Shown in pieces: positions 45,946 to 64,000 of a stretch of DNA of 64,000 nt. The first letter of the stretch is position 1. Every line of letters starts with the position of its first letter. The position numbers were made by a program, and so were the translations under genes. The notes under the pieces are model-generated. The model made no database searches. It saw only the letters and a program-made list of their open reading frames with translations, and was not told where the DNA came from. The DNA comes from Candidatus Borrarchaeum weybense (lineage in GTDB: Archaea; Asgardarchaeota; Sifarchaeia; Borrarchaeales; Borrarchaeaceae): positions 581,038 through 645,037 of the forward strand of contig JAHQJS010000006.1 of the NCBI GenBank assembly GCA_019057385.1, given 5' to 3'.

Positions 45946-47187
45946 TTATCGAAATTTGAGGATTTTCCCTATTCTCTTTGCGCCTCTTGAGATACGCTCT
46001 CTCATAGTTCTTGAAGAACTACCAGAAGAGCCACTTCTTACCATAAAAGCAAGTGAACTGCCACTTGCCTTGCGCTCGGGGGGATTTTGTGCCTTTTTTG
46101 TCACTACATTCTTTATCCCTGCACCGAGTTTCCCAGCGGCATCATTTATTCTTTCAGACACAACAGAACGCAAACCATACTTGTCCGTGTAACTTATCGC
46201 CATGATGAGCCCCATACAGATCAGAGTGGGTATTCCAAACGCTGTAAACCATTCAAGGAGTGCGAAAATTAATGCTACGTATTGCGATACAGGAGGAAAC
46301 CAATCCGCCCACTCGATCCCAGCAGTAAAAGTTGCAGGTGCAGCAAGCATTATGACAATGCCAGCAATAAAGAATGAACCACTAATTTTTGCGAGTGTTT
46401 CAAGCAGATCAGTGCCTATGACAAAACTCAATGCAAAGAATATAAACGCAAGAAGGACAGTTACAAATGCGATGAACTCATGTACTTGGTCTGGGTGTAC
46501 GATCCACTCGAAAAAGTTTGGATAACCTTTCCATTCGTAGCCCGCACCAGGACTTTGATCTTCGTCTTCTACGTCTTCTGGTAAGCCTCTCCCTCCTTCG
46601 CCTTCCTCAGCGTTCCATTGAAAATTCTCATACGTTTCAGAACTACCGTACCAAAGATAGATTTTCCCGTAAAAGTCAGCGTTCTTCAAATCTTTATCTT
46701 GAAAATAGAGAACTGCCGTGAAGCTACCGTCATCAATTTTAATTTTATCACTTGTGTAGAGACTATTGTCGTCTATATCGAATATTTGTATTTGATACTC
46801 CGCGCCTCCATCGTTATCTTTTGGTAACTCATTGTCGTCAATTGAATCAACCAATTCTGGAGTCACGTCAGATACGGTAACCGTGTAAATAGTTCCCACT
46901 TGACTTATATCAAAATCAAGTTCTACTTCTGTGTTTGTACTTGAGATAGAGAGGTCCATCATGGACATTTTATTTGTGCCAATAAAAACACCAAATAGAA
47001 TCGCGTAGCCAACACAAAGGATCGCTAAATACTTATAGCCCTTTTGTGTTGCTAAAAGAACTGCTAAATAAAAAAAACCGAGAAATCCAATAAGAAAAAT
47101 GTATTGCCTAAAGATCCCAAGAACGATAGAAGGCACTATAATCGTAGAAACAACTGCTGTTGAGGTCCAGTTTGCTGTACGTTTCAT
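45946..47187 (-). CDS. Polytopic membrane protein with acidic Ig-like external domain
   Basis: N- and C-terminal TM clusters, acidic beta domain, basic tail. Confidence 0.75.
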   Translation of the reverse strand: MKRTANWTSTAVVSTIIVPSIVLGIFRQYIFLIGFLGFFYLAVLLATQKGYKYLAILCVGYAILFGVFIGTNKMSMMDLSISSTNTEVELDFDISQVGTIYTVTVSDVTPELVDSIDDNELPKDNDGGAEYQIQIFDIDDNSLYTSDKIKIDDGSFTAVLYFQDKDLKNADFYGKIYLWYGSSETYENFQWNAEEGEGGRGLPEDVEDEDQSPGAGYEWKGYPNFFEWIVHPDQVHEFIAFVTVLLAFIFFALSFVIGTDLLETLAKISGSFFIAGIVIMLAAPATFTAGIEWADWFPPVSQYVALIFALLEWFTAFGIPTLICMGLIMAISYTDKYGLRSVVSERINDAAGKLGAGIKNVVTKKAQNPPERKASGSSLAFMVRSGSSGSSSRTMRERISRGAKRIGKILKFR

Positions 47188-51731: not shown

Positions 51732-52220
51732 TTAATACTGTAGCTCGAGATTTACTTTTAAATCCCTTATTATTTTTAGATTTTCAAGTGTGTTGTCGTT
51801 AAATTCGTGGATTACCGCTATCTGTTTCGCTCGATTTTTTTCATTCTCTTCTGTAGCAAGTACTTTGAGAATTGCCTCTATTTCTTTCATATTTTTTGCA
51901 ATAACACGGAAATACGGCTTAAGTTCCTTAGAAGCAACACCTTTTACTTGTTCCTCACTACTTACGTAATATTCTAATCGTTTTTTACCTCTTTCAGTTA
52001 TAATGTACTCGTATATCGGTTTCTTGCTTTCTTCAATGTGTTTTTTATCACGATCGACAAGCCCTTGTCTATAGCACCGAAGTAGTATCACACAAACCAA
52101 CTCCCGGTCCTTCCCTAAGGCATCACTTATCACCTTTGATGTGTTGTTTCCTTTACTTACTTCCTTCAATATTCTTTGTTTGACTTCAGAGAAGCCTGTA
52201 AGCGTTTTTGACATATTCAT
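51732..52220 (-). CDS. wHTH regulator with C-terminal coiled coil, divergent from the early arm (candidate repressor)
   Basis: TSKVISDALG..LLRCYRQGLV..YIITERG. Confidence 0.75.
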   Translation of the reverse strand: MNMSKTLTGFSEVKQRILKEVSKGNNTSKVISDALGKDRELVCVILLRCYRQGLVDRDKKHIEESKKPIYEYIITERGKKRLEYYVSSEEQVKGVASKELKPYFRVIAKNMKEIEAILKVLATEENEKNRAKQIAVIHEFNDNTLENLKIIRDLKVNLELQY

Positions 52221-52426
52221 CTCCAGAGAGGGGATTTTAGTTTTTAGATAAGAATATGAGAGTACTGCTATTTAAATTTAACGCTAGCGTTTAAATAAGT
52301 CAATTTGCGGAGAAATTTACCACAAAATATATATAAAAGTAGTGACATTGTTTCTATTAACAAGCTTTGAAGGATGGTGATGTATGGATACGTTAGTAGC
52401 TAAGTCGCTGTGTTCAATCGGGCGCG

Positions 52427-52450
52427 TAGTCGCATAGTCGCATAGTCGCG
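52427..52450 (+). repeat. (TAGTCGCA)x3 iteron-like repeat
   Basis: Three tandem 8-mers; repeated at 53062-53085 and, degenerate, at 58646-58669. Confidence 0.85.
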
Positions 52451-52645
52451 CAGTTTTTGGACGCACCCACCCCACCAAATAGGACGGGCAAGAGCTATTC
52501 TACTTGTTAAAGACAACGTCAATTGATGGAGCTTATACCATCAACTCAACTCCTGGAGAGCCAACTTATACTTGGGGGGTCACACCCCCCGAGCTCCACC
52601 CTTAAAAAATTCACTTTTGTATATGGAGCTCATGCTCAGGAGTTT

Positions 52646-52966
52646 ATGAAATTGTATTTGTGTTCTAAATGTGGAACAACTCGCCACACACCCAATTTAT
52701 TTGAAGGTAAACCATACTGTCGTAAGTGTTACAAAAAAGTGATTCAGAAGCCAAAAGGTTGTTCTATCCCTTTAGGGATACCCCCTAAAAATAGAGGTAA
52801 CTATCGAAAAAGTCAGGGTTTACGTAAAAGAAGAATCTGGCGAGTAGTCAGAAATCAATCTGGTGAGATTATAGAAGAAGAGAGAATACCAAACCGCAAA
52901 GGACGTTTTAACCGTCATATCTCTCTAAATATGAAGGATAAACTCACCCCTCAACCCAATCATTAA
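52646..52966 (+). CDS. Basic Zn-finger protein
   Basis: CSKC..CRKC; ATG 52646 follows a GGAGCT leader and SD GGAG. Confidence 0.7.
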   Translation: MKLYLCSKCGTTRHTPNLFEGKPYCRKCYKKVIQKPKGCSIPLGIPPKNRGNYRKSQGLRKRRIWRVVRNQSGEIIEEERIPNRKGRFNRHISLNMKDKLTPQPNH

Positions 52967-53002
52967 TCTTTTTTTTGTGGAGCTTGGCTCTAAGGTGGCT
53001 AA

Positions 53003-53080
53003 ATGAACCAAAGAGTAATTCTTGAGACCTTACTGAATTTCATTACTCTTGTTGTGGCTATTAGTCGCATAGTCGCATAG
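53003..53080 (+). CDS. 25-aa hydrophobic peptide
   Basis: MNQRVILETLLNFITLVVAISRIVA*; leader identical to that of 55392. Confidence 0.45.
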   Translation: MNQRVILETLLNFITLVVAISRIVA

Positions 53081-53085
53081 TCGCA
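53062..53085 (+). repeat. (TAGTCGCA)x3 perfect repeat
   Basis: Direct reading. Confidence 0.85.
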
Positions 53086-53302
53086 CAAAAAGGAGAGATA
53101 CACCTTGCAAGACAAATTTAATAAGAAAAACGTAACTCTCCGCCTTGTCTTGTGGTATTTTGCAATACACCAAGACGCGAGACTACTAAACTTTGTGGTC
53201 GCGGCGTAATTTGTTCAAGACTACTTAAGTACTTAGGTACATAGGTATCGTCATACCTAAGTAGTCCTCTTTTTTGGAGCTCTAAGGCTCTGGAGTGAAA
53301 TT

Positions 53303-55045
53303 ATGACTGAAGCAATAGAAGAAGCCACAAATCCTGAAAAGGAATGGCTAAAAACTTTAGTTCGAGCGGATTTTGAAAAAACTAAAGAGGATGAAGAACT
53401 TAAACTAAAACCCATAACCTCAGGGATACAATCACTAATCCTTGAATTCTACCAGCGGTTATCCTCGACAGATACACCAGACGAATTCGATCAGTTTTAC
53501 AGTGAAAGACTGAAACAGTATAAAGCAATGCATTTGTTCATCAGTTTCCTTAATGAATATGCGGTTAAATTGGGGTTATCTCCCCGACCAACGGCACCAG
53601 AGTTTTACAGGAATTCACAAGAAGTAGAAAAGTATCTCTTTGAGATTACTGAAGCTACTCTCGGAGAACCACAGACACTTAAAACCTTGCAAGATCAGAT
53701 CAGTGCAAAATATCCCGATCTACTCAGTCAAATCATTAAAAATGAAATTGACAAAACGAACGGGAAATATGAAGATTTTGTCAACAACGAAATGACAGAG
53801 ATTGAGGAGAAAATTGATTTAGGGGTCGAAATAGAACTTGATCCCGTCATCAGTAAACAATTGCAATTAATCGAGGAATCTAAGGGAAAAATTCAGCAAA
53901 TTTCAGCAGAATTAAACAAGATGATTATTCTCGGTGAAACGGTATGGGAATATCTCATCTATGCAATGGTGAGCCCGCACTGCCCACCCTTTTACATCAA
54001 TGGTCTTAAAAAACGTGCTAATTTGCACGTACTTCTGGTGGGCGATATTTCTACAGCAAAGTCAGAAATCATCGACGTTACTGATGAAATAGCCTTTAAG
54101 AGTTTTAAAATAGACGATAGCACACGCGCCGCTATGGAAGGAAAATATACTACTGAAGGAATCGAAGCTGGGGTTATCGACCATGCTAACAATGGCTTGC
54201 TCTGTATTCACGAATTCGATAAAGCCTTGAAGGAGTTTAAATTACTCCGAAGGTGTCTCGATTGCAGAGATTTTACAATTGCGAAAGGCGAGCACATGAA
54301 AATCACTAACATCAACATGACACTTTTCTGTGGAGCCAACCCAACCGATGATTTTTTCCATAAAGAATGTTATCGGGATCAGATCCCCTTTTCAGAGGGG
54401 CTTCTGAGCAGGTTTGATATAACATTGCCCCTCCAATCTACCCCACTACGTAATAACCTCATGCTTGATCGTTTAGACCTCTTTTCCGAAGATAAAATCG
54501 TTGATATTACAAAAACCAAAGAAATCTTAGCAACTTTAATTCATGGCATACAGAAACTCAAAGGCGTTAAAATCGAACAAGAACACCAAAAAATGATAAA
54601 AGAAGTCTTTCGTCTGTATAACATTCGTTTACCACGCCGCCCCTTTGTAATCCTTCGAGACCTCGAAACCATTGCCCGATTTGTCAATGTAATAGCGTCT
54701 GCCAACTTTTATAATAGACAGGTAAAAGACGGCTACGTGTATGCTATAAAAGAGGACATTGAGAAAGCAATTTCCCTATGGGAGGACTTAATGCACCGCC
54801 GCCGACAACTGTACGAAGAAACAGGCGCAAAGAAAGAATTGACAAGCATTGATGACATAATCAAGAAAGAAATCATCATGCACGGTAAAGACCACATTAA
54901 AAGTACGGATCTTTATGAGATAATCGTGGAAAAACTCCATATATGTCACAAAGCGACCTTCTATAGAGCACTAAATCGCATGGAAGCGCAGGGAAAAATA
55001 CAACGTAAAGGCAGGAAAAACGCAACAATCATCCTCAACTCCTAA
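53303..55045 (+). CDS. Divergent MCM-family helicase with non-canonical N-terminus and C-terminal wHTH
   Basis: HVLLVGDISTAKS, EAGVIDHANNGLLCIHEFDK, GANP, LLSRFD and RDLE. Confidence 0.85.
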   Translation: MTEAIEEATNPEKEWLKTLVRADFEKTKEDEELKLKPITSGIQSLILEFYQRLSSTDTPDEFDQFYSERLKQYKAMHLFISFLNEYAVKLGLSPRPTAPEFYRNSQEVEKYLFEITEATLGEPQTLKTLQDQISAKYPDLLSQIIKNEIDKTNGKYEDFVNNEMTEIEEKIDLGVEIELDPVISKQLQLIEESKGKIQQISAELNKMIILGETVWEYLIYAMVSPHCPPFYINGLKKRANLHVLLVGDISTAKSEIIDVTDEIAFKSFKIDDSTRAAMEGKYTTEGIEAGVIDHANNGLLCIHEFDKALKEFKLLRRCLDCRDFTIAKGEHMKITNINMTLFCGANPTDDFFHKECYRDQIPFSEGLLSRFDITLPLQSTPLRNNLMLDRLDLFSEDKIVDITKTKEILATLIHGIQKLKGVKIEQEHQKMIKEVFRLYNIRLPRRPFVILRDLETIARFVNVIASANFYNRQVKDGYVYAIKEDIEKAISLWEDLMHRRRQLYEETGAKKELTSIDDIIKKEIIMHGKDHIKSTDLYEIIVEKLHICHKATFYRALNRMEAQGKIQRKGRKNATIILNS

Positions 55046-55140
55046 TTTTTTTCTCATTACTTAAGTACTTGTAAATGGAGCTTACTTCCAGGAGTAATAT
55101 TTTTAACATAGTCACTACAAAAGTATATACGGTGTTTATA

Positions 55141-55356
55141 TTGATCGAAAAAAAGAAAGTTTATAGATCAGGCAACTCAAAAGCCGTCCTCATACCCGCC
55201 TCTACATTTAAAGCGATGGAGAAACCCGATAAGGTATCAGTTGCTTTTAACGAGGTTATGATAGTTTTTAATGAGGATATGGACATTGAGATGATTAAAT
55301 CTGACATCTTAAACCTTCTCAAGTCAATAGAACTGCGTTATGGGAAGGTTACATAA
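55141..55356 (+). CDS. AbrB/MazE-like DNA-binding protein
   Basis: KKVYRSGNSKAVLIPA; TTG start after GGTG. Confidence 0.7.
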   Translation: MIEKKKVYRSGNSKAVLIPASTFKAMEKPDKVSVAFNEVMIVFNEDMDIEMIKSDILNLLKSIELRYGKVT

Positions 55357-55391
55357 TTCTTTTTTGTGGAGCTTGGCTCTAAGGTGGATTT

Positions 55392-55646
55392 ATGGTAATT
55401 AAAGGCGAAGCGCAAACCATGCACCAAGCATGGCAAAAAGCCTTTGTGAATCTCGAAGAAACTATTAAAGAACGAGAAGTCGAACTTAAAAGACTACAAA
55501 CGGCTAAAAAAGAATGTCAGAAAAAACTCACAAAGGCGAATAAACAAACGGTTCTTGAACTAATTGAGACACGAATTGATTACTTACAGAAAAAACTCGA
55601 AAGCGAGAGAAGTATGCTCAATAGTTTAGAACCTTACAACTCTTAA
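55392..55646 (+). CDS. Coiled-coil hypothetical protein
   Basis: 84 aa with heptads; conserved leader. Confidence 0.7.
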   Translation: MVIKGEAQTMHQAWQKAFVNLEETIKEREVELKRLQTAKKECQKKLTKANKQTVLELIETRIDYLQKKLESERSMLNSLEPYNS

Positions 55647-55692
55647 CCTTTTTTTCCCTTCTTGTGGAGCTATAAGGCTCTGGAGTGAAAAC

Positions 55693-56184
55693 ATGACCTT
55701 AGAATACAAAGGGTTTTTTAAAAACGTAAACTACGAACCCGAAAAGGGAGATTGGATCGAGGTTTTTGCAAGCGATTGGAACAAAGACTATTGGGCATTC
55801 TACGCATACATTCCATTCGAGAACTATGAACAAGGAATTCAAGTGATCAATGACTTGATCGGCGAATTGAATTGGCGAGACGGGGACGTATATATTGAGT
55901 TAATTAATATGAGTCCTGGTCTTGAAAAATTGTATAACAAACTCTACGATGACGGCTATTTTGCTCATTGGTCGGCTCTTAATCCCGACAAATGGCGCGA
56001 ATATTTAGAGGAAATCGAAGAGGAAGAAGCCGAAGAATTTTCCGACTTCAAAGATCAATATTTTAGGAAAAACTGTCAAACAAAATCAATTGAAGAGTGC
56101 GATGAAACGTCTTGCAATGAATCTTGTATAGATGAATGGGCGTATCCTCAACGACCAGATCCATCCCTGTATTACGACCAATAA
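55693..56184 (+). CDS. Acidic hypothetical protein
   Basis: Very D/E/W/Y-rich; conserved leader. Confidence 0.75.
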   Translation: MTLEYKGFFKNVNYEPEKGDWIEVFASDWNKDYWAFYAYIPFENYEQGIQVINDLIGELNWRDGDVYIELINMSPGLEKLYNKLYDDGYFAHWSALNPDKWREYLEEIEEEEAEEFSDFKDQYFRKNCQTKSIEECDETSCNESCIDEWAYPQRPDPSLYYDQ

Positions 56185-56238
56185 ATCTCCACCTTTTTTT
56201 TCTTTCATGGAGCTAACAAAGGCTCAGGAGTGTTTACT

Positions 56239-56619
56239 ATGAATGTCGAAATCAATTCTTTCGCGGATCTTATATACGTCCTATCTGAATTCGCAAAAGT
56301 TGATAAAAACTACGAATGGCACGTCAGTGAAGACGATGAACGTGTGTATTTAACACATTTCAGATGTGAAACTTCAGAAGCACCAGAATATTTTGTAAAT
56401 GACAGGAAACAAGACTTCAAAAAGTTGTGGGACACCGCATATCAGTACACCTTACGGTGTGCGACTTCTAAGGAAGAACCGAGTTTTGAGGCTCTTTGTA
56501 ATGCGATAAAGAAACAGAACATCGAAATCAGAACGTCGACGGATGAGGAACGGCTTTCCTATGTAGATCGAATCACTGAAATGGACGCTAATATGGAAGA
56601 AGAACTTGCTATGGAGTGA
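56239..56619 (+). CDS. Acidic hypothetical protein
   Basis: ATG 56239 after leader GGAGTG. Confidence 0.7.
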   Translation: MNVEINSFADLIYVLSEFAKVDKNYEWHVSEDDERVYLTHFRCETSEAPEYFVNDRKQDFKKLWDTAYQYTLRCATSKEEPSFEALCNAIKKQNIEIRTSTDEERLSYVDRITEMDANMEEELAME

Positions 56620-56641
56620 AGATCAGAATTAGGGTGTTTAC

Positions 56642-56776
56642 ATGACAGAAGAACGCGAATTTAGTGTATTTGTCATCTTAAGAAAGATGGCGACAGACCG
56701 CCAAGACGCTTTAGATAAAGTAGATCAGGACATACTCGATAAAGATTTCGAAATTTACGATGTCATTGAATCTTAA
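56642..56776 (+). CDS. 44-aa acidic microprotein (not in ORF track)
   Basis: GGGTG SD; MTEEREFSVFVILRKMATDRQDALDKVD..IES*. Confidence 0.55.
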   Translation: MTEEREFSVFVILRKMATDRQDALDKVDQDILDKDFEIYDVIES

Positions 56777-56869
56777 ACGAGACTACTTAGGTAATTAGGT
56801 ACTTAGGTAATTCCAAACATCTCCTATTTTTTTATGTGTGGAGCTTCAAAAGGCTCTGGAGTGAACAAT

Positions 56870-57814
56870 ATGGTACAAATCAAATTTGATAGTGCAAAAC
56901 TTTGGTCTTCTCTTGTGAAGGGTGTAAATGCTCTCATAAAAGAAGCCGAATTTGAGACCACTAAAGAAGGACTACATCTTCGAGCAATTGATGACGCGCA
57001 CATTGCCATGATCGACTTGGACATACCAAGCGATTCTATGAAAGAATACTCTTTTACTCTTCATGACAAAGAGGCAGACTTCGCGAAATTCGGCATAAAT
57101 ATTACTGAAATGGCTACAATAATGCGACGTATCCCCATTGGAGAAAAATTGACGCTGACATTGGATTCACAAAAAAGCAAATTTCATGTCGTAGCAGACT
57201 CTTTATACACAAAACGACGATTTTCAATTCCTCTCCTAGGTTCAACTTCCGCTGAAGACATTCCTGTACCGAAGATAGACTTTACAACAAAAATCAAACT
57301 TAAAGCAAAGTACCTCAAAGAGGCAATTAAAGACGCCGCTGTGATGGGTGACTATTTAAAACTCAAGACGACTGCCGATAAATTTTCTTTATGGGCAGAA
57401 GGCGATACAGGAAACGTCAGCATAGACTATGAATATGGAGAATCAATCTCTCTTGAGAAACGCGGTGACGCTGTTGGAATTTATGCTTTAAAGTACTTAG
57501 ACGATATGACCGATCCTATCCCTGGCGAATCTGAGGTAAGTATTGAGTTCTCAAATGATATGCCTCTGAAACTTACGTGGATGTTAAACGGCTCAAAACT
57601 AGATTACTACTTAGCTCCACGTATTCCACCCTCGGATGAAGAACCACCAAAAAAAGAGGAAAAGGAACAAGAAAAAACTAAGGATGACACAGAAGAGGAA
57701 AAAGAAACGCACGAAGAAACTAAGGAATTCCCTTGTGACGAGTGCGGAAAGACCTTTACTAGCCAAAGAGGACTTAACACACACATGCGCGTACATAAAG
57801 ACTCTGATGAATAG
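56870..57814 (+). CDS. pcn: PCNA sliding clamp fused to an acidic linker and a classical C2H2 zinc finger
   Basis: LRAIDDAHIAMIDL, YALKYL, EFSNDMPLKL and YYLAPRI; tail FPCDECGKTFTSQRGLNTHMRVH. Confidence 0.9.
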   Translation: MVQIKFDSAKLWSSLVKGVNALIKEAEFETTKEGLHLRAIDDAHIAMIDLDIPSDSMKEYSFTLHDKEADFAKFGINITEMATIMRRIPIGEKLTLTLDSQKSKFHVVADSLYTKRRFSIPLLGSTSAEDIPVPKIDFTTKIKLKAKYLKEAIKDAAVMGDYLKLKTTADKFSLWAEGDTGNVSIDYEYGESISLEKRGDAVGIYALKYLDDMTDPIPGESEVSIEFSNDMPLKLTWMLNGSKLDYYLAPRIPPSDEEPPKKEEKEQEKTKDDTEEEKETHEETKEFPCDECGKTFTSQRGLNTHMRVHKDSDE

Positions 57815-57883
57815 TCCTTCCTCTATTTTTTCTCGTTACTTAAGTAATTTTTTAAGGAGCTTCTGACTCCAGGGTGTATTTAC

Positions 57884-58168
57884 ATGAACGGATGGAAAAA
57901 AATATGGGATACCGAAGAAAAAGGACTCTACAAAGACAATTCTTTCTCGTTCGTTGATTTTGAGAAAGAGGACTTATATCTATTGATACAAAAGTCTGGT
58001 CCGAGTGGTTGGTATCTTTATTTATTTGAACACGGTAGCCCAAGAACTGTTGGATGGGCTACTACAAAAGAAAAAGCCTTAGAGATAGCTAAGTTTATGA
58101 TGGAAACAGATAATTTCCCACCAGCACATAAGTACTTCAATGCGGATCTTGAACTTTGTAAGTCCTAA
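57884..58168 (+). CDS. Hypothetical protein
   Basis: 94 aa, TKEKALEIAKFMM motif; conserved leader. Confidence 0.7.
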   Translation: MNGWKKIWDTEEKGLYKDNSFSFVDFEKEDLYLLIQKSGPSGWYLYLFEHGSPRTVGWATTKEKALEIAKFMMETDNFPPAHKYFNADLELCKS

Positions 58169-58231
58169 CATCCTTTTTTTCTAATTCTGTCTGCAAAGTG
58201 CTGCAGGGGCTCAAACCTCCAGGATCAGAAT

Positions 58232-58319
58232 TTGTTATTACAATTCAGGCCCTTACTTTCATTTTGTTATCACATTTGTAATAACATTCTACACCCGGCA
58301 ACTTATTTTGTGATGACAA
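58232..58319 (+). promoter_or_regulatory. Operator array B: four TTGTnATnACAA palindromes upstream of a TATA box
   Basis: Boxes at 58232, 58264, 58276 and 58308; AAAATATATAA at 58344. Confidence 0.75.
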
Positions 58320-58377
58320 ATTATAACCTAATAACTGAGACACAAAATATATAATTGAGTTCTTATAATGTAGTTCA

Positions 58378-58622
58378 TGAGACACACACGAAATACATCT
58401 ACAAGGTCGCACCCTTGCTGACCTATTATGTCTCAGAAAAGGAAGGGTCTCCTGCCGCGGGAGTTTGAAACGTCACTCACTTCCCTCCGTGAGTAAGCGG
58501 GCGTGGTCACGACTCGAAATGTGGGTAAAAGTCGTGTAGTGAAGTCAGTGAAACAGAAAACTCATAAAAAGAAAAAACCCTCCTGAGGTAGAAGAACGGG
58601 GGTTCGATTCCCCCAAGCTCCT
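58378..58622 (+). ncRNA. Structured ncRNA ending in a tRNA/tmRNA-like acceptor plus T-arm domain
   Basis: GGAGTTT(58460)/AAGCTCC(58615) 7-bp stem; GGGGG-TTCGATT-CCCCC T-arm (58598-58614); internal hairpins; no long ORF. Confidence 0.65.
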
Positions 58623-58748
58623 CCCTCAAAAATTAAAGACTAGCGTAGCCGCATAGTCATATAGTCGCAAATATTATTTATACGTGGAGCTTAATAAATT
58701 TAATGGAACGGGAGTTTTTACTTCAGAACTACTTAGGTAGTGCGAAAT

Positions 58749-59690
58749 ATGTCCTTAGTGCACTTTTTGCAGAAAAACCCTGACTACCTCTCAGGTGTCA
58801 GAAGAATCCTCGAATATGAAGAGGACCATAAAGACGATCAGTATTTCAAGGACTTAGGGTGGTCTTGGGATGATATTAGACTTTCAGGACCACACTTGAA
58901 TCAGTTAGTTTTGGCGGGAATAATTCAAATTGTGTATAAATCCCGCAAGAATCGCGGCTATTTGTTAGTAGATCGAGAAAAAACAAAGAAAGAGATCGAA
59001 CTATACGAAGCACAATTAAATTATAGTCCAGAGACAGACGAAGAGATTGAATTCTCAGAATCTATCTTTGATGACATTATAGGCTATAACGATGTGAAAA
59101 AACTCTTTAAACGGGCGTTGCGGAGTGAAGAACCGATACATATCCTCATGATTGGACCACCCGCCAGCGCAAAGAGTATGTTTCTTTTTTGTCTTGCACG
59201 TTTAGATGGGGCTCATTATTCTCTTGGCTCATCGAGTACCAAAAGCGGATTATCTGATTTTCTTATTGAGTATTCTCCGCGCATATTATTGATCGACGAG
59301 TTGGACAAAATGAACACACCTGACTACTCCGTACTGCTCTCCTTATGTGAGAGTGGACTTGTGGGAGAAACAAAATACAAGAGAGTACGAAGTGTTCAGT
59401 TGAAATGTTCTGTATTCGCGGCTGCCAATGATGACAAAAAAATTCCGCGAGAAGTTAAAAGTCGATTTATTGCACTTCGATTTAAGGAGTATTCAAAAGC
59501 AGATTTTATAGAAACTGCCGTAAAACTTCTTATGCGGGAAGGAAAAGACCATGACTTAGCCACCTATATCGCTGAAAAAGTATGGCACTTTAAAAACCGC
59601 GATATAAGAGACTGCATACAGATAAGCCGCTTAGGAGATACACAAGAAGAGATCGACTCAACCCTGAAAACACTTCAGAAGTATTCGTGA
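58749..59690 (+). CDS. wHTH plus AAA+ ATPase (MCM/RuvB-like, typical of archaeal integrative elements)
   Basis: HILMIGPPASAKS, LIDELDK, AAAN, SRF and DIRD. Confidence 0.85.
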   Translation: MSLVHFLQKNPDYLSGVRRILEYEEDHKDDQYFKDLGWSWDDIRLSGPHLNQLVLAGIIQIVYKSRKNRGYLLVDREKTKKEIELYEAQLNYSPETDEEIEFSESIFDDIIGYNDVKKLFKRALRSEEPIHILMIGPPASAKSMFLFCLARLDGAHYSLGSSSTKSGLSDFLIEYSPRILLIDELDKMNTPDYSVLLSLCESGLVGETKYKRVRSVQLKCSVFAAANDDKKIPREVKSRFIALRFKEYSKADFIETAVKLLMREGKDHDLATYIAEKVWHFKNRDIRDCIQISRLGDTQEEIDSTLKTLQKYS

Positions 59691-59742
59691 GTACCTAAGT
59701 ACTCATGTTTGTTTTATTTTTTCTTTTCATGGAGCTTCAATC

Positions 59743-61461
59743 ATGAAGGCTCTACCACAAACAGGAGGAATTCAAATTTCGTGGATACATGAATTTTTTG
59801 AGAAATATCGTGCCCAAATAACACCCCTCAGTATCACACATTTCAATATCGAGGATTTCCCGCAACTTTTTACTGCAAAAGTAAATGGGAAAACTCTTCC
59901 TGGATATTTTGAATTCGTAATTGAGTATGATATTGGATCGGGGTTATGTCCTTTTGAACCACAAAAAACAGACTCTGAACAACTTACAACAGATGAAGAC
60001 AGCTCTGAACAAATTACAATGACCGACAAACTACGTCAAGAATATGCGAAGTTTATACAGTCAGACGAAGTTTATGAACTACCTGTTGATCCCGTAGAAA
60101 CGCTGAACTTTATCCGCTATTTATTCCGCGAATATAAGGGGCTTTTTGTTCTTTATGATTGCGAAACAATAGCACCTGACAGTTCGGCGGCACACATGAC
60201 GCTACAGGATCGTCAATGTTCGCAACTACTTAAAAATTTAGCATTAGACCACAAAATTCGCAAAAAAGGAAGCGCAATCATAGTGACTGCCGAGAGGCTT
60301 GAGGATATTGCCCAAAAAGTCCGAAAGGTAGCTAATATCATTGAAATTCCGCTTCCTGACGATACATCACGAAAGAAAGTGTTTGAACAAGCAACTGAAA
60401 AAGTCGCTTATAATCCTAAGGACTTGGATCAATGGGTAGTCGGATCGAAAGGTTTGACAATCAAAGAACTTAAGTCGATCATAGTTGAACTTTATCAGAA
60501 AGACACCACAATTATGTTAGGTGACTTCTATGATCAAAAAGCGAAAAAGTTAGAGAAGTACGACATGGTCTCTTTAGAGAATCCAAAGTTCGGATTCGAG
60601 GGCTTAGTTCTACCAGACTACTTAAGTACTTTCCTTAAGACCTTCATAATAAAGCCATATCAACAAGCTATGCAAATTCGTCCAAAAGGGATCTTGTTCA
60701 CAGGACCACCAGGCACAGGGAAATCAGTGTTGGCGGAAGTAATAGCCTACGAACTTAACAGACCGTTGATTACCGTTGACGCAAGTAATTTACTCTCTCA
60801 ATATGTCGGGGAGAGTGAGAAACGGACTGCTCAATTTTTCCGAGTAATCAGACAATTTGGTGAGGCAGTTGTCCTTATTGATGAAGCCGAAGAATTACTC
60901 AGCGAGCGATCTACAGCAGTCAACACTGATAGCGGTGTGACATCCAATTTGAAGGCAACCTTTCTTCATGAAATGGCGAGAGATCATGGAGTATTGTTTA
61001 TACTCAATACTAATTATCCAATGAAACTCGATGCTGCCATGGTTCGTGTGGGCAGAATTAATTACAAAATACCACTTTTGCCACCATTTACCGCTGAAGA
61101 ACGGGCTAAAATACTTCGTGTGGTGTTAGATGTTCAATTAAAAGTCCCATACGATAAGAACATAGATTTTGAAGCAATTGCCGCAACACTTCAGGGATAC
61201 ACAGGCGCAGAATTACGAGAATTAGCAAGTGTAGCATGGGCTATTGCTTGTGTTGAAAATGACAAAGAAAAAACCGAGCAGGAAGATTTTGATGTCGCAA
61301 AAACGGTGTTTCTACCCGATACGCGAAAGATCAAAGAAATGACCGCCGACGCACTTTCAGTAGTGAATGACAAAAGGCTTTTGCCGCCACAACTCCACAA
61401 AGAAAAAGAAAAGAAGGTTCAAGAGTTTCAAGAAGGCACTTGGGATTCACTCTTTCAATAA
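59743..61461 (+). CDS. Ycf46-like AAA+ ATPase (degenerate N-terminal AAA plus active C-terminal AAA)
   Basis: PKGILFTGPPGTGKS, YVGESE, IDEAE, LDAAMVRVGRI and GYTGAEL; true start may be ATT 59776. Confidence 0.85.
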   Translation: MKALPQTGGIQISWIHEFFEKYRAQITPLSITHFNIEDFPQLFTAKVNGKTLPGYFEFVIEYDIGSGLCPFEPQKTDSEQLTTDEDSSEQITMTDKLRQEYAKFIQSDEVYELPVDPVETLNFIRYLFREYKGLFVLYDCETIAPDSSAAHMTLQDRQCSQLLKNLALDHKIRKKGSAIIVTAERLEDIAQKVRKVANIIEIPLPDDTSRKKVFEQATEKVAYNPKDLDQWVVGSKGLTIKELKSIIVELYQKDTTIMLGDFYDQKAKKLEKYDMVSLENPKFGFEGLVLPDYLSTFLKTFIIKPYQQAMQIRPKGILFTGPPGTGKSVLAEVIAYELNRPLITVDASNLLSQYVGESEKRTAQFFRVIRQFGEAVVLIDEAEELLSERSTAVNTDSGVTSNLKATFLHEMARDHGVLFILNTNYPMKLDAAMVRVGRINYKIPLLPPFTAEERAKILRVVLDVQLKVPYDKNIDFEAIAATLQGYTGAELRELASVAWAIACVENDKEKTEQEDFDVAKTVFLPDTRKIKEMTADALSVVNDKRLLPPQLHKEKEKKVQEFQEGTWDSLFQ

Positions 61462-61558
61462 TTTCCTCTTTTTTTTCTTTATCACTACTTAGGTAATTGT
61501 GTTCATTTTTAGAGGGGCTTCTTCTCCAGGAAGCTACTAACTTTAATGAGGAAAAAAG

Positions 61559-62059
61559 TTGAGTAAATATCTCGAAGTAAAAACTCAATTCAAAAGTATG
61601 GCACATCTTATCGAGGCATTAACATCAATCTATGGCTACGGTACAGTCAAAGCGGGTAAAAATTTACCTCTCAAGGATTATCTTGGCAATATACGACCAG
61701 AAAAGGCAGATATCGTAGTACCAAGACGCTTCATTCATCCAGCGTCAAACGATCTTGGATTCAAGAAAAATGAAAACGGTGTTTATACCATGATTATCTC
61801 AGAATTTGACGAAGTAGTAGCATCAATGACTCCCCAAAGACTCGCTAATGAACTTAATTTGTATGGTCCGCCATATTCGACTCAATGCAAAGGAATTCCG
61901 AATACTGAGATAAAGAAACAATACAATCTCAGTTTTATCAGAGACTTTGCCAAGAAAAACCGTTGGAATCTGTCATTGACAGACAAAGAAACTCATTTTG
62001 AAGTTCGTTTGAAACGAAGAGTGACTGTTTCCGCAAAAGCAAGGAGGTCTGCCAGATGA
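61559..62059 (+). CDS. DUF1257 (Ycf35-like) protein
   Basis: SKYLEVKTQF..LIEAL, ADIVVPR..SNDLGF..YTMIISEFD. Confidence 0.8.
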   Translation: MSKYLEVKTQFKSMAHLIEALTSIYGYGTVKAGKNLPLKDYLGNIRPEKADIVVPRRFIHPASNDLGFKKNENGVYTMIISEFDEVVASMTPQRLANELNLYGPPYSTQCKGIPNTEIKKQYNLSFIRDFAKKNRWNLSLTDKETHFEVRLKRRVTVSAKARRSAR

Positions 62060-62262
62060 CACAAGAAGAGCAGATCTTCTTCAAAATCGACAAAAAGACA
62101 GGTAACTTGACAATCGAAGGCAAAGGATTCGAAGGACCGATCTGTGAAGACGTTTTAAAGTCATTTGAAGAGTTAGGAGAGATAACACATGACAAAAGAA
62201 CACCAGAGTACTATAAAAAACCTCGACAAGTCCAAACAACCCGCCAACGACTTAGACATTAA
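62056..62262 (+). CDS. DUF2997 protein
   Basis: FKIDKKTG..IEGKGFEGPIC..ELG..TPEYY. Confidence 0.8.
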   Translation: MTQEEQIFFKIDKKTGNLTIEGKGFEGPICEDVLKSFEELGEITHDKRTPEYYKKPRQVQTTRQRLRH

Positions 62263-62448
62263 AATAAAAACAATAATTCGCATTGAGGACGATGGAACAG
62301 TCATTTTTTGCGATATTCCAACTGAGTTAATCCCTTTAGCCTTAGCATTGCGGGGCGATTAATTTCTCTTTTTTTTCTTATTATTTAGGTAATTCGTTAG
62401 GATGGAGCTTCTTCGTTGAGAGGCTACCAACTTCAGGAGAAAACCAAG

Positions 62449-63591
62449 ATGTCAGATACGAAAAACATTTCCATTTCTGTTAATGAAATGGATGTTCTTC
62501 TGAATGGTCAACGAATAGATCTTCATATCTCGTCAGGAGATATGTTTAGTCAATCTAAGTTGAATAAATTGCTCTACAAAGGATATAAAAGGCTTTCATC
62601 AACAATGGTGAAAACTTATACAAACGGCGATACTCTCACGCTTGATTCAATCAAGACAAAAGCACATGAACTAAGGCAGAAATACTGTTTCAGGTTATTT
62701 GAAAACAGCGTTGAAGACAACAGAGGGGCTGTATATTTTTGTCCCGAGTCTCTGACCGAAAAGTTGCGCAAAGACCTACGGGAACTCAAAAAGGAATATA
62801 AAAAGACACTTGAGTTTATTGGCAAAATCAGAGATACTTTGAATGAAGAAATCTTTAGTTTTTACAGTGAGCATTGTATTTATTGCGGGCGACCTGTGAA
62901 AGAAGAAAAGGCGGGAAAGATCATAAAATTGCGATGCACAGGCGATGATTCGCATATATTCACTAAAAAACTCATGGATCATTGGTTAGAACAAAATAAG
63001 TCGGTGATAGAAGTACCCTCGTTAGAGGAGATTAAAGCGCGAAAGAGATTTTATTATCGCTTCAGCAAATATTTTTTCCCCACTGAAGAACTCACTGACA
63101 ACTTAGTTGATACACAACTTAAACAGCAAAAGCAAAAAATGTATCAGGCAGAATTATCTACATGCAAGTCTGCAATAAAAAAACAGTTATGGCAAAAGAT
63201 GAAGTTAATCCTTGAATACATAGATGATCGGCTTTCAAAAAGAGAAAAACTTCGTGCAGACCAACTTGATAAAATCAAGAATGATTTAGATGCATTAGAA
63301 GAACTAAATAAAAGCACCTTCAAAATTCCTCAGATTTCTAATTCTATAGACAATCTCAATGCACAGATTGCAGACAAAGAAGCTGCACTGAAAGTTTTGA
63401 CAAACATCTCGAAGAACATCGAAAAGAAAATCAAAGAAGCTGAAGAAAATGAAAATATTGCGATGGATCTAATAGACAAATTAGAGGACATCGACATAGA
63501 AATTGGTACAGAAACGCTTGAACTAGAACAAAAAGAAGCAGTTGAAATTGAACTTGGTGACCAGAAAGAAGAGATTTTTTCTACAAATTAG
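62449..63591 (+). CDS. DUF3150-like coiled-coil protein with inserted Zn ribbon
   Basis: RGAVYFCPE motif, CIYC..C..H insert, position after DUF1257/DUF2997. Confidence 0.55.
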   Translation: MSDTKNISISVNEMDVLLNGQRIDLHISSGDMFSQSKLNKLLYKGYKRLSSTMVKTYTNGDTLTLDSIKTKAHELRQKYCFRLFENSVEDNRGAVYFCPESLTEKLRKDLRELKKEYKKTLEFIGKIRDTLNEEIFSFYSEHCIYCGRPVKEEKAGKIIKLRCTGDDSHIFTKKLMDHWLEQNKSVIEVPSLEEIKARKRFYYRFSKYFFPTEELTDNLVDTQLKQQKQKMYQAELSTCKSAIKKQLWQKMKLILEYIDDRLSKREKLRADQLDKIKNDLDALEELNKSTFKIPQISNSIDNLNAQIADKEAALKVLTNISKNIEKKIKEAEENENIAMDLIDKLEDIDIEIGTETLELEQKEAVEIELGDQKEEIFSTN

Positions 63592-63682
63592 TTTAAATCA
63601 AATCTTAGTACCTAGGTACTAAGAAATATTTTTCAATTTTTTATTTTTATGTGGGGCTTCATGGCTCAGGGGTGAACAAACT

Positions 63683-63880
63683 ATGCCTATAGATTCATGG
63701 CAAGAGTTCATTGAAACGATCAAAGGGCTTCTAATTGGTTGCGGTATAGATATTATTATTGTGTCTTTCTATATTCCAGAAGTCCGCAATGATCTCAATT
63801 ATTGGGTTCTCACACCAATACTCATCATCTTAGACTTTCTTGTGCGCTTTGTGAGAACCTTTTTTATTTTTTTATTATGA
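63683..63880 (+). CDS. Small 2-TM protein
   Basis: 65 aa; conserved leader GGGGCTTCATGGCTCAGGGGTGA. Confidence 0.6.
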   Translation: MPIDSWQEFIETIKGLLIGCGIDIIIVSFYIPEVRNDLNYWVLTPILIILDFLVRFVRTFFIFLL

Positions 63881-64000
63881 GGGGCTTCTTCTCCAGGAAG
63901 AACGCTACCAACTTTTTGTGAGGGATTAATATAAGACAACGAAAAAAGATTCAACTTCTGAGGGTCTCTCCAGTCACACGAATGAGACTTGTCAAAAAGT

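Follow-up and report, generated by a model that had tools for sequence, protein, structure and literature searches.

Why should nearly the same short leader stand in front of gene after gene along one arm of a mobile element, and does it act in DNA or in RNA? The question is raised by positions 52,451 to 64,000 of a 64,000-nucleotide stretch of Candidatus Borrarchaeum weybense (contig JAHQJS010000006.1, forward-strand positions 581,038 to 645,037; "the window" below means this whole stretch), where an oligo-T tract, a GGRGCT box that opens a hairpin and a Shine-Dalgarno (SD) motif recur upstream of successive genes. A preliminary description of the sequence had listed 16 such boxes, all on the + strand, had taken the variable loop and constant stem as a sign of RNA structure, and had likened the series to the promoter-stem-loop repeats that shuffle gene cassettes in T4-like phages. 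The sense-strand, element-specific and RNA-structure parts of that interpretation stood up to our analysis, whereas the phage analogy and the cassette exchange did not. We tentatively read the unit, from its sequence and with a confidence that stops a little short of even, as an intercistronic messenger RNA (mRNA) module for processing, stability or translation in the replication ("early") arm.

All 16 of the listed GGRGCT boxes were verified at their positions and on the + strand. Three further copies were added, one at 52528 and two outside the window at 65627 and 67564; the leader series begins at 52528, runs beyond the window end to about 67564 and counts no fewer than 19 copies. In the window as a whole, 45 GGRGCT sites were observed on both strands against 28.5 ± 5.8 expected, a number that none of 100 shuffled sequences reached. 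Between 52500 and 64000 the + strand carried 21 sites and the - strand 3, and 17 of the 21 + strand copies lay in non-coding DNA, although only about 17% of this interval is non-coding (the intragenic copies are at 54397, 59208, 60138 and 62725). The reported absence of the leader from the minus arm also holds, the minus-strand copies at 46208, 47196 and 47663 being devoid of the T-tract/hairpin form. The strict pattern GGRGCT-N1-10-GGCTC was found seven times between 52979 and 63653, always on the + strand, and seven times on both strands of the other 4.1 Mb of the 4.18-Mb genome; the looser GGRGCT-N0-12-CTCY had 12 + strand copies in the arm. The full motif preceded none of the 3119 host open reading frame (ORF) starts, so that it is specific to the element and not equally common before host genes. 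When the 19 copies were anchored on the box, their flanks proved T-rich from -16 to -3, with R at -2 and W at -1 directly before GGRGCT. Since position 7 was T in 14 copies, C in 3 and A in 2, the conserved box is a 7-mer, R-W-GGRGCUY.

The tract in front of the box behaved as a terminator signal of the sense strand and not as the promoter suggested by the phage analogy. In the arm, T runs lie directly 3' of stop codons, and the box follows a sense-strand oligo-T tract after 0-27 nt. Runs of at least six T on the sense strand numbered 21 in 2.7 kb of intergenic DNA versus 9 in 13.3 kb of coding DNA, and runs of at least six A 5 versus 29; T-tracts were likewise present after host tRNA genes. 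This is the arrangement looked for in an archaeal oligo-T terminator, namely at least five T on the sense strand just past the stop codon and avoidance within genes. Archaeal transcription is terminated at U-tracts with aCPSF1/FttA (PMC8716108), and internal-operon terminators grade expression within archaeal operons (PMC10450193). The T-tract is therefore best read, on sequence grounds, as a putative archaeal oligo-U termination signal that may work as a partial internal-operon terminator. It resembles such terminators in that nearly all junctions have T6 to T8 on the sense strand right behind the stop codon, such runs being avoided in genes. Known archaeal terminators, by contrast, have no conserved hairpin behind them, whereas here, several readings combined, the same box follows within about 50 nt at 16-17 of the 18 T-tract junctions of the arm, and the junctions without a T-tract (56620 and 62056) are also without a box.

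The genomic setting likewise speaks against a bacterial promoter. The host is archaeal, as judged from the 3' end of its 16S rRNA (GGATCACCTCCT) and from the introns in many of its tRNA genes, and the + arm encodes an MCM helicase, a PCNA-C2H2 fusion, a second MCM-like AAA+ protein and an AAA ATPase. Because of the archaeal host and the MCM and PCNA genes in the arm, phage early-arm and bacterial promoter logic is inapplicable, and with it the sigma-70 promoter that the T4 analogy would imply. A promoter with its start site at the box was considered and rejected, no TATA box being found at about -26 in the 19 box-anchored leaders, nor at any fixed distance upstream of the box. The element itself was outlined by a 10-bp palindrome, TAYYTARRTA, of which about 47 copies occur at window positions 36113-94094 (G000:C6:617150-675131), as against about 25 per Mb elsewhere; this clustering delimits an inserted element of about 58 kb.

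Folding placed the box in the 5' arm of a local hairpin in 17 of the 19 copies, with stems of 5-12 bp. In seven leaders, here called A-type, GGAGCU(U) is paired with (A)GGCUCU, and the longer stems at 59731, 61514, 62404, 63881, 65627 and 67564 keep this base while their upper part differs in sequence and length; among the hairpins the loop or insert ranged from 3 to about 25 nt and the base, GGRGCU/GGCUCY, was constant. A-type stems have G·U closing pairs at both ends, which would be mismatches in DNA or in antisense RNA. Because G·U pairs close the stem, the RNA of the + strand folds more stably than that of the - strand, a difference seen in 14 of 16 copies and averaging 1.8 kcal/mol (Wilcoxon p = 0.0017, the copies not being independent). 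A first, loose test with a regular expression was uninformative (38% background, p = 0.098), and a fold-based test was used instead: the box was paired at -3.4 kcal/mol or below within 30 nt in 16 of 18 leader copies but in only 36% of 1556 other genomic GGRGCT sites (Fisher p = 6e-6), with mean fold energies of -6.5 and -3.9 kcal/mol, respectively. The prevalence of local hairpins, the variable loop, the G·U closing pairs and the greater stability of the + strand RNA all indicated RNA structure in preference to a DNA palindrome, as had been suspected from the letters alone. The hairpin also stands in a regular relation to translation signals, since in A-type leaders the stem ends 0-1 nt upstream of GGAGTG, which in turn lies 5-7 nt upstream of the ATG; in the copy at 59731 the box's own GGAG is at SD distance from the ATG.

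On this observed anatomy, the steps of an mRNA module, each of them inferred, would be the following. The oligo-U tract would end or attenuate the upstream message in the manner of a partial internal-operon terminator; the conserved hairpin would form at the head of the downstream cistron, where it could protect or define a new 5' end, and would present the adjacent SD. The invariant stem base may be the recognition site of one factor of the host or of the element and, as a single factor would then recognise the same base throughout, the whole arm could constitute one post-transcriptional regulon.

Two leaders of the arm carry something more. At 52574 and 58598, one at the head of each of two gene blocks, lies a T-arm-like hairpin followed directly by a 7-nt strand complementary to the box (Table 1); both units are unique in the genome. 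The GAGCTCC of unit 1 complements the box GGAGCTC at 52625 (27-nt loop) as well as the SD GGAGTT at 52639, with an alternative upstream partner at 52528, and the 73-nt fold that it could close with the latter (52528-52600; -26.7 kcal/mol, z -3.3) sits in an open frame, so that it may be coding sequence. The AAGCTCC of unit 2 complements GGAGCTT at 58686 (64-nt loop) and GGAGTTT upstream at about 58461. The features of a tRNA top half, that is, a 5-bp stem with a 7-nt loop, a contiguous 7-bp helix and an unpaired N-CC, were found together only at 52574-52600 and 58598-58624, and the other 17 leaders have no T-arm. ARAGORN called no tRNA at either unit, and no Rfam family reached its gathering score anywhere in the window; sub-threshold alignments at the level of a T-arm or of a permuted transfer-messenger RNA (tmRNA) in 52200-59000 covered the geometry of the units with scores of 18-21 bits where 47 are required. 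A family of small RNAs with GGAGCU...AGCUCC ends was absent from this host. That the units are leftovers of integration into a tRNA gene was considered and rejected, as there is no host tRNA with this 3' half and no direct repeat of at least 16 bp between the presumed element ends.

A search for relatives placed these units in a wider context. No relative was found at the DNA level among 6 class genomes, 400 phylum genomes, species-representative genomes, IMG/VR (searched by protein, motif and alignment) and metagenome contigs (searched with a single protein); the motif search of IMG/VR yielded 13 single-copy matches, chance-like in appearance. Relatives of the MCM protein, at 30-41% identity, were present on 74 metagenome contigs, and on many of these a compact leader precedes + strand genes. 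It starts with a hairpin (5-bp stem, loop yUCAnnA), directly followed by a 6-nt strand (CCUCUG, CACCUG, CUCACC, UCGCCG and other variants) and by a purine-rich loop of 7-18 nt, often opening RCC-UAAA; its closing strand is the SD itself (CAGAGG, CAGGUG, GGUGAG or CGGUGA), and after 3-10 nt comes the start codon. A covariance model, R1, was built from 39 of these leaders and, with copies counted at E ≤ 0.01, recovered 97 copies on 31 contigs, all of them on the sense strand of MCM (for example L032:4797-4851 and L059:6404-6452) and 92 of them 1-11 nt upstream of the start of an ORF with 40 or more codons. Changes on both sides were seen at 11 of the 11 base pairs, in both helices; as the seeds had been picked by pairing and the second alignment was fitted to the model, only the diversity of pair types counts here, not the percentage paired. 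The upstream stop codon touches the first hairpin in about one third of the copies, a T run precedes 8 of the 97, and helix 2 is kept even in the MCM leaders of L031, L032 and L025, where the SD lies outside it. The R1 leaders had no match in Rfam and no description in the literature searched. A variant leader, CTCGC-GTCAAA-GCGAG and then CCTG...CAGGAG, was seen before at least three genes of L062:2000-8600 and is missed by R1 at E 0.01.

The link of the window to this family is weak and mainly architectural. The loop of the hairpin at 52574, GTCACAC, is identical to leader loops of L028 and L054, the ACCCTTAAAAAATT of the same unit resembles ACCCTAAAAAATTG of L017, and the unit aligns to R1 over the hairpin only. 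A possible counterpart of the R1 architecture lies at 52574-52631 and at 58598-58692; its loops, however, measure 27 and 64 nt versus 7-18 nt in R1, and the distance from box to ATG is 14-56 nt versus mostly 5-9 nt from the R1 leader end to the ATG. We consider the two T-arm units probable expanded members of the R1-type family and infer that the other 17 window leaders are a local derivative of it; the GGRGCUY module would then probably have arisen as a local derivative within a broader leader family that has apparently not been described.

Several observations weigh against the mRNA module. R1 gave nothing significant in the window (best E 0.3-2), in the source genome or in 151 phylum genomes and, since it scores no window element, the link between window and R1 rests on architecture and two short resemblances. 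The core stem shows no compensatory change, its sole variation being A or G opposite U, and only the variable upper stems differ; with an invariant core and no close relative found, this element alone yields no true covariation. The stems are short (-3.4 to -14 kcal/mol) and their mean z against shuffled sequences is only -1.4, and the hairpin statistics overstate the evidence because the copies are paralogous. With a T6-T8 run at every junction, a polycistronic transcript would be strongly attenuated if neither read-through nor processing were efficient. Finally, a TATA-like TTATTTATA lies just upstream of 58686, where the box may have a promoter on one side and the corresponding start site on the other.

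The T-arm units invite a different account, possible but unlikely, in which a tRNA mimic split in two would direct RNase P to its cleavage sites. The strand RAGCUCC behind the T-arm would pair with the GGRGCUY boxes in trans or over a long range, thereby building the acceptor-stem and T-arm top half on which RNase P, as with an external guide sequence, would cut 5' of G1 and so divide the operon transcript into single cistrons; the leaders of the relatives would each include a guide in cis, with the strand order permuted. The complementarity extends over 7 nt: AAGCUCC is perfect with 8 GGAGCTT leader boxes (9 including 52528), GAGCUCC is perfect with 2 GGAGCTC boxes, and 5 GGGGCTT boxes pair with one G·U. 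No copy deviates from T at position 6 and 14 of the 19 have T at position 7, even where both fall in the loop of the local hairpin, and 13 of 19 have U at position -1. With 5 + 7 bp the stack is as long as a tRNA top half (12 bp), both units have N-CC behind the 3' strand and are genome-unique, the sub-threshold permuted-tmRNA-like alignments match their geometry exactly, and the relatives just mentioned retain helix 2 without an SD in it. Yet in 17 of the 19 copies a local hairpin of similar or greater stability already occupies the box, the Rfam scores were 21 and 19 bits versus 47, the unit 1 loop GUCACAC and most of the relatives' loops are without A58, and the relatives stack only 5 + 6 bp; moreover, we know of no natural trans guide for RNase P. 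The full form of this proposal, in which one short RNA per gene block (52574-52600 and 58598-58624) would be a natural external guide that pairs with the box of each gene, host RNase P would cut the top half built in trans to release hairpin-capped, translatable cistrons, and the leaders of the relatives would represent the cis, circularly permuted ancestor, seems to us improbable on this sequence evidence.

Should the signal act in DNA, the box and its imperfect inverted partner would be an operator or promoter-proximal site for an element-encoded factor, and the T-rich tract, as a TATA-like sequence, would start each gene. If every junction held a terminator, each gene would need a promoter of its own, the box at 58686 does lie between the TATA-like box and the expected start site, and the arm has likely DNA binders (the ORF at 55075, AbrB-like by eye although without a Pfam match, a weak winged helix-turn-helix match and the C2H2 finger on PCNA). 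We nevertheless judge this unlikely, for the half-site spacing ranges from 3 to about 25 nt, the G·U positions are mismatches in DNA, and the host TATA form, TTTAWA with a purine-rich transcription factor B recognition element upstream, is unlike the pyrimidine-flanked T runs; the 26-60 nt from T-tract to ATG would also leave the SD untranscribed, yet SD-like motifs stand at canonical spacing. Processive antitermination, by analogy with lambda nut or HK022 put, would have the hairpin RNA, with or without a protein, modify the polymerase to pass the next oligo-T terminator. It would fit the strict pairing of T-tract and hairpin in the arm, a stem base conserved as for a factor-binding RNA, and the T-tracts without hairpins of the minus arm, which would make the hairpin an arm-specific addition; we find it doubtful all the same, given that the hairpin lies downstream of its own T-tract, that the closeness of the SD is left unexplained and that, to our knowledge, no RNA-based antitermination of archaeal RNA polymerase has been described. 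Still less probable are minimal upstream ORFs that couple or gate translation of the main gene, with RTG-GAG-CTY read as a start codon and Glu-Leu. ATG, GTG or TTG is found at -2 to +1 in 13 of the 19 copies, position 7 is T, C or A, each of which keeps Leu, and four of the frames (52625, 52979, 56209 and 59731), by reading, overlap the main start through a terminal ATGA; such overlaps are near chance, however, because most genes here begin ATGA, no SD but a T run precedes the starts, A at -1 leaves six copies with no start codon, the peptides of 3-18 codons share only M-E-L, and the downstream complement of the box finds no explanation.

The least probable reading, and by analogy with T4-like phages a very doubtful one, is that the leaders serve as homology for the shuffling of gene cassettes. 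Unrelated genes do stand between near-identical leaders. The stretch shared by the copies at 52979 and 55368 is real and comprises 28 identical bases (from 52971 and 55360), not the 27 first reported, within a 35-nt repeat at 91% identity; a 72-nt leader with palindrome, T-tract and B-type hairpin at 61484-61555 is duplicated at about 65597-65670 (L089:1597-1670), at 91% identity and with unrelated genes behind. Most leaders, on the other hand, have no more in common than the 7-mer and about 10 nt, which is not long enough for homologous exchange to be efficient, and the units do not conform to the definition of the phage repeats. Nothing shows that exchange has occurred, there being no paralogous genes behind the leaders and no related element for a comparison of gene content. 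The arm proteins gave no BLASTP match to one another, so the genes behind the leaders are unrelated; copying of the leaders via gene duplication was rejected on the same ground.

The coordinates of the leaders and T-arm units in the window are collected in Table 1.

Table 1. Leader copies and T-arm-like units of the + arm (positions in the window)
Feature	Position	Strand	Description
GGAGCTT box, first copy	52528..52534	+	possible 5' strand of a 73-nt tRNA-like fold, 52528-52600, closing with GAGCTCC 52591-52597
T-arm-like unit 1	52574..52597	+	GGGGG-GTCACAC-CCCCC, then directly GAGCTCC, then ACCC
First-gene leader	52625..52648	+	box GGAGCTC; local stem GAGC/GCTC 52626-52637; SD GGAGT; ATG 52646
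Leader of 24-codon ORF	52969..53005	+	T8; box and hairpin 52979-52991; SD-like GGTGG; ATG 53003
MCM leader	53270..53305	+	T6; hairpin GGAGCT-CTAA-GGCTCT 53276-53291; SD GGAGTG; ATG 53303
Atypical leader	55046..55097	+	T7; palindrome TACTTAAGTA; box 55077 fused to ATG 55075; local fold weak
Leader	55360..55394	+	T6; hairpin 55368-55380; SD GGTGG; ATG 55392; 28 identical bases with copy at 52971
Leader	55649..55695	+	T7; hairpin 55666-55681; SD GGAGTG; ATG 55693
Leader	56194..56241	+	T8; hairpin 56209-56225; SD GGAGTG; ATG 56239
PCNA-C2H2 leader	56827..56872	+	T7; 7-bp hairpin 56840-56857; SD GGAGTG; ATG 56870
Leader	57826..57886	+	T6; palindrome; second T6; hairpin GGAG/CTCC 57856-57870; SD GGGTG; ATG 57884
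Leader	58174..58234	+	T7; box GGGGCTC 58206, weak hairpin to 58220; TTG 58232, start uncertain
T-arm unit 2, canonical	58598..58621	+	GGGGG-TTCGATT-CCCCC, then directly AAGCTCC, then TCCC
MCM-like AAA+ leader	58686..58751	+	box GGAGCTT without local partner; palindrome 58730; ATG 58749
Leader	59717..59753	+	T6; 9-bp bulged hairpin 59731-59753 enclosing ATG 59743; box GGAG at SD distance
Leader	61469..61561	+	T8; palindrome; T5; B-type hairpin GGCTTCTT/AGGAAGCT 61516-61535; TTG 61559
Leader	62369..62451	+	T8; palindrome-like TATTTAGGTA; 10-bp hairpin 62404-62428; SD GGAG; ATG 62449
Leader	63637..63685	+	T6 and T5; hairpin 63654-63667; SD GGGGTG; ATG 63683
Leader	63860..63984	+	T6 and T7; B-type 12-bp bulged hairpin 63881-63909; ATG 63982

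Other features of the locus were recorded alongside these. The ORF at 53003-53077, hydrophobic and of 24 codons, follows a full leader, and its 3' end enters an array of TAGTCGCA. Arrays of the form (TAGTCGCA)3, at 52427-52452, 53062-53087 and 58646-58671, flank the heads of both gene blocks, and the related arrays TAGTCTCA and CATAGACTCATAG stand beside the MCM gene on metagenome contigs L015, L040, L045 and L070; arrays of this type are probably iterons or operators kept across the MCM clade. Where the minus and plus arms diverge, at 52270-52300, two TTTAAAT boxes, one on either side of the palindrome AACGCTAGCGTT, likely mark a pair of divergent promoters. The palindrome TAYYTARRTA precedes genes on both arms, where 7-35 nt usually separate it from the SD or the start codon, and has the look of a binding site for a dimeric regulator. 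The PCNA with its C-terminal C2H2 zinc finger is encoded at 56870-57814. Beyond the window, the ORF at 64820-65389 (L089:820-1389) gave a marginal match to the ASCH domain (21.6 bits, cut-off 21.2), whose fold is predicted to be RNA-binding; no other candidate RNA binder was seen in the arm. Elsewhere in the source genome, contig C1 (39% GC) has tightly packed clusters of intron-less tRNA genes, in contrast to the intron-rich tRNAs of the other contigs, and may be a contamination; the assembly is rated 7% contaminated.

Set beside known systems, the proposed mRNA module has partial counterparts only. Bacterial polycistronic mRNAs carry intercistronic 5' stabiliser hairpins and SD-adjacent leader hairpins, which likewise place a stem-loop with a variable top at the head of the downstream cistron, beside the SD; the present unit differs in its archaeal host and in a stem base that is identical before about 19 unrelated genes within a single element. 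The promoter-early stem-loop (PeSL) units of T4-like phages are also short repeated stem-loops between small unrelated early genes, but here there is no bacterial promoter, the host is archaeal and the T run lies upstream of the hairpin. In the translational regulon of phage T4 RegA, and at the hairpin operator through which MS2 coat protein controls the replicase, one short RNA signal occupies a ribosome-binding region, and the leaders resemble them in bringing one such signal to many early genes, although the marginal ASCH-domain ORF is the sole candidate for a protein that would bind it. Plant mitochondrial t-elements, the external guide sequences for RNase P and mitochondrial tRNA punctuation (reviewed in PMC9181182) are examples of processing signals that are tRNA-like. 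The T-arm units share with them a T-arm stacked on a 7-bp acceptor-like helix with N-CC, placed between or before cistrons, and depart from them in that the strand order is permuted, with the 3' strand first, or the mimic is split, with one guide for many targets, and in that there is no D or anticodon arm.

Should the leader prove to be only a stabiliser hairpin, it would amount to a tidy annotation of modest interest. Post-transcriptional expression is almost unknown in archaeal viruses and plasmids, and nothing has been measured for Asgard-type hosts; one leader signal before about 19 unrelated replication genes offers a handle that can be mutated, consisting of one hairpin, one T-tract and one SD. 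The R1 leader joins a T-loop hairpin to a helix that sequesters the SD, and could reveal coupling or gating of translation in archaeal mobile elements; it could also show whether they use the tRNA-processing machinery for the punctuation of mRNA.

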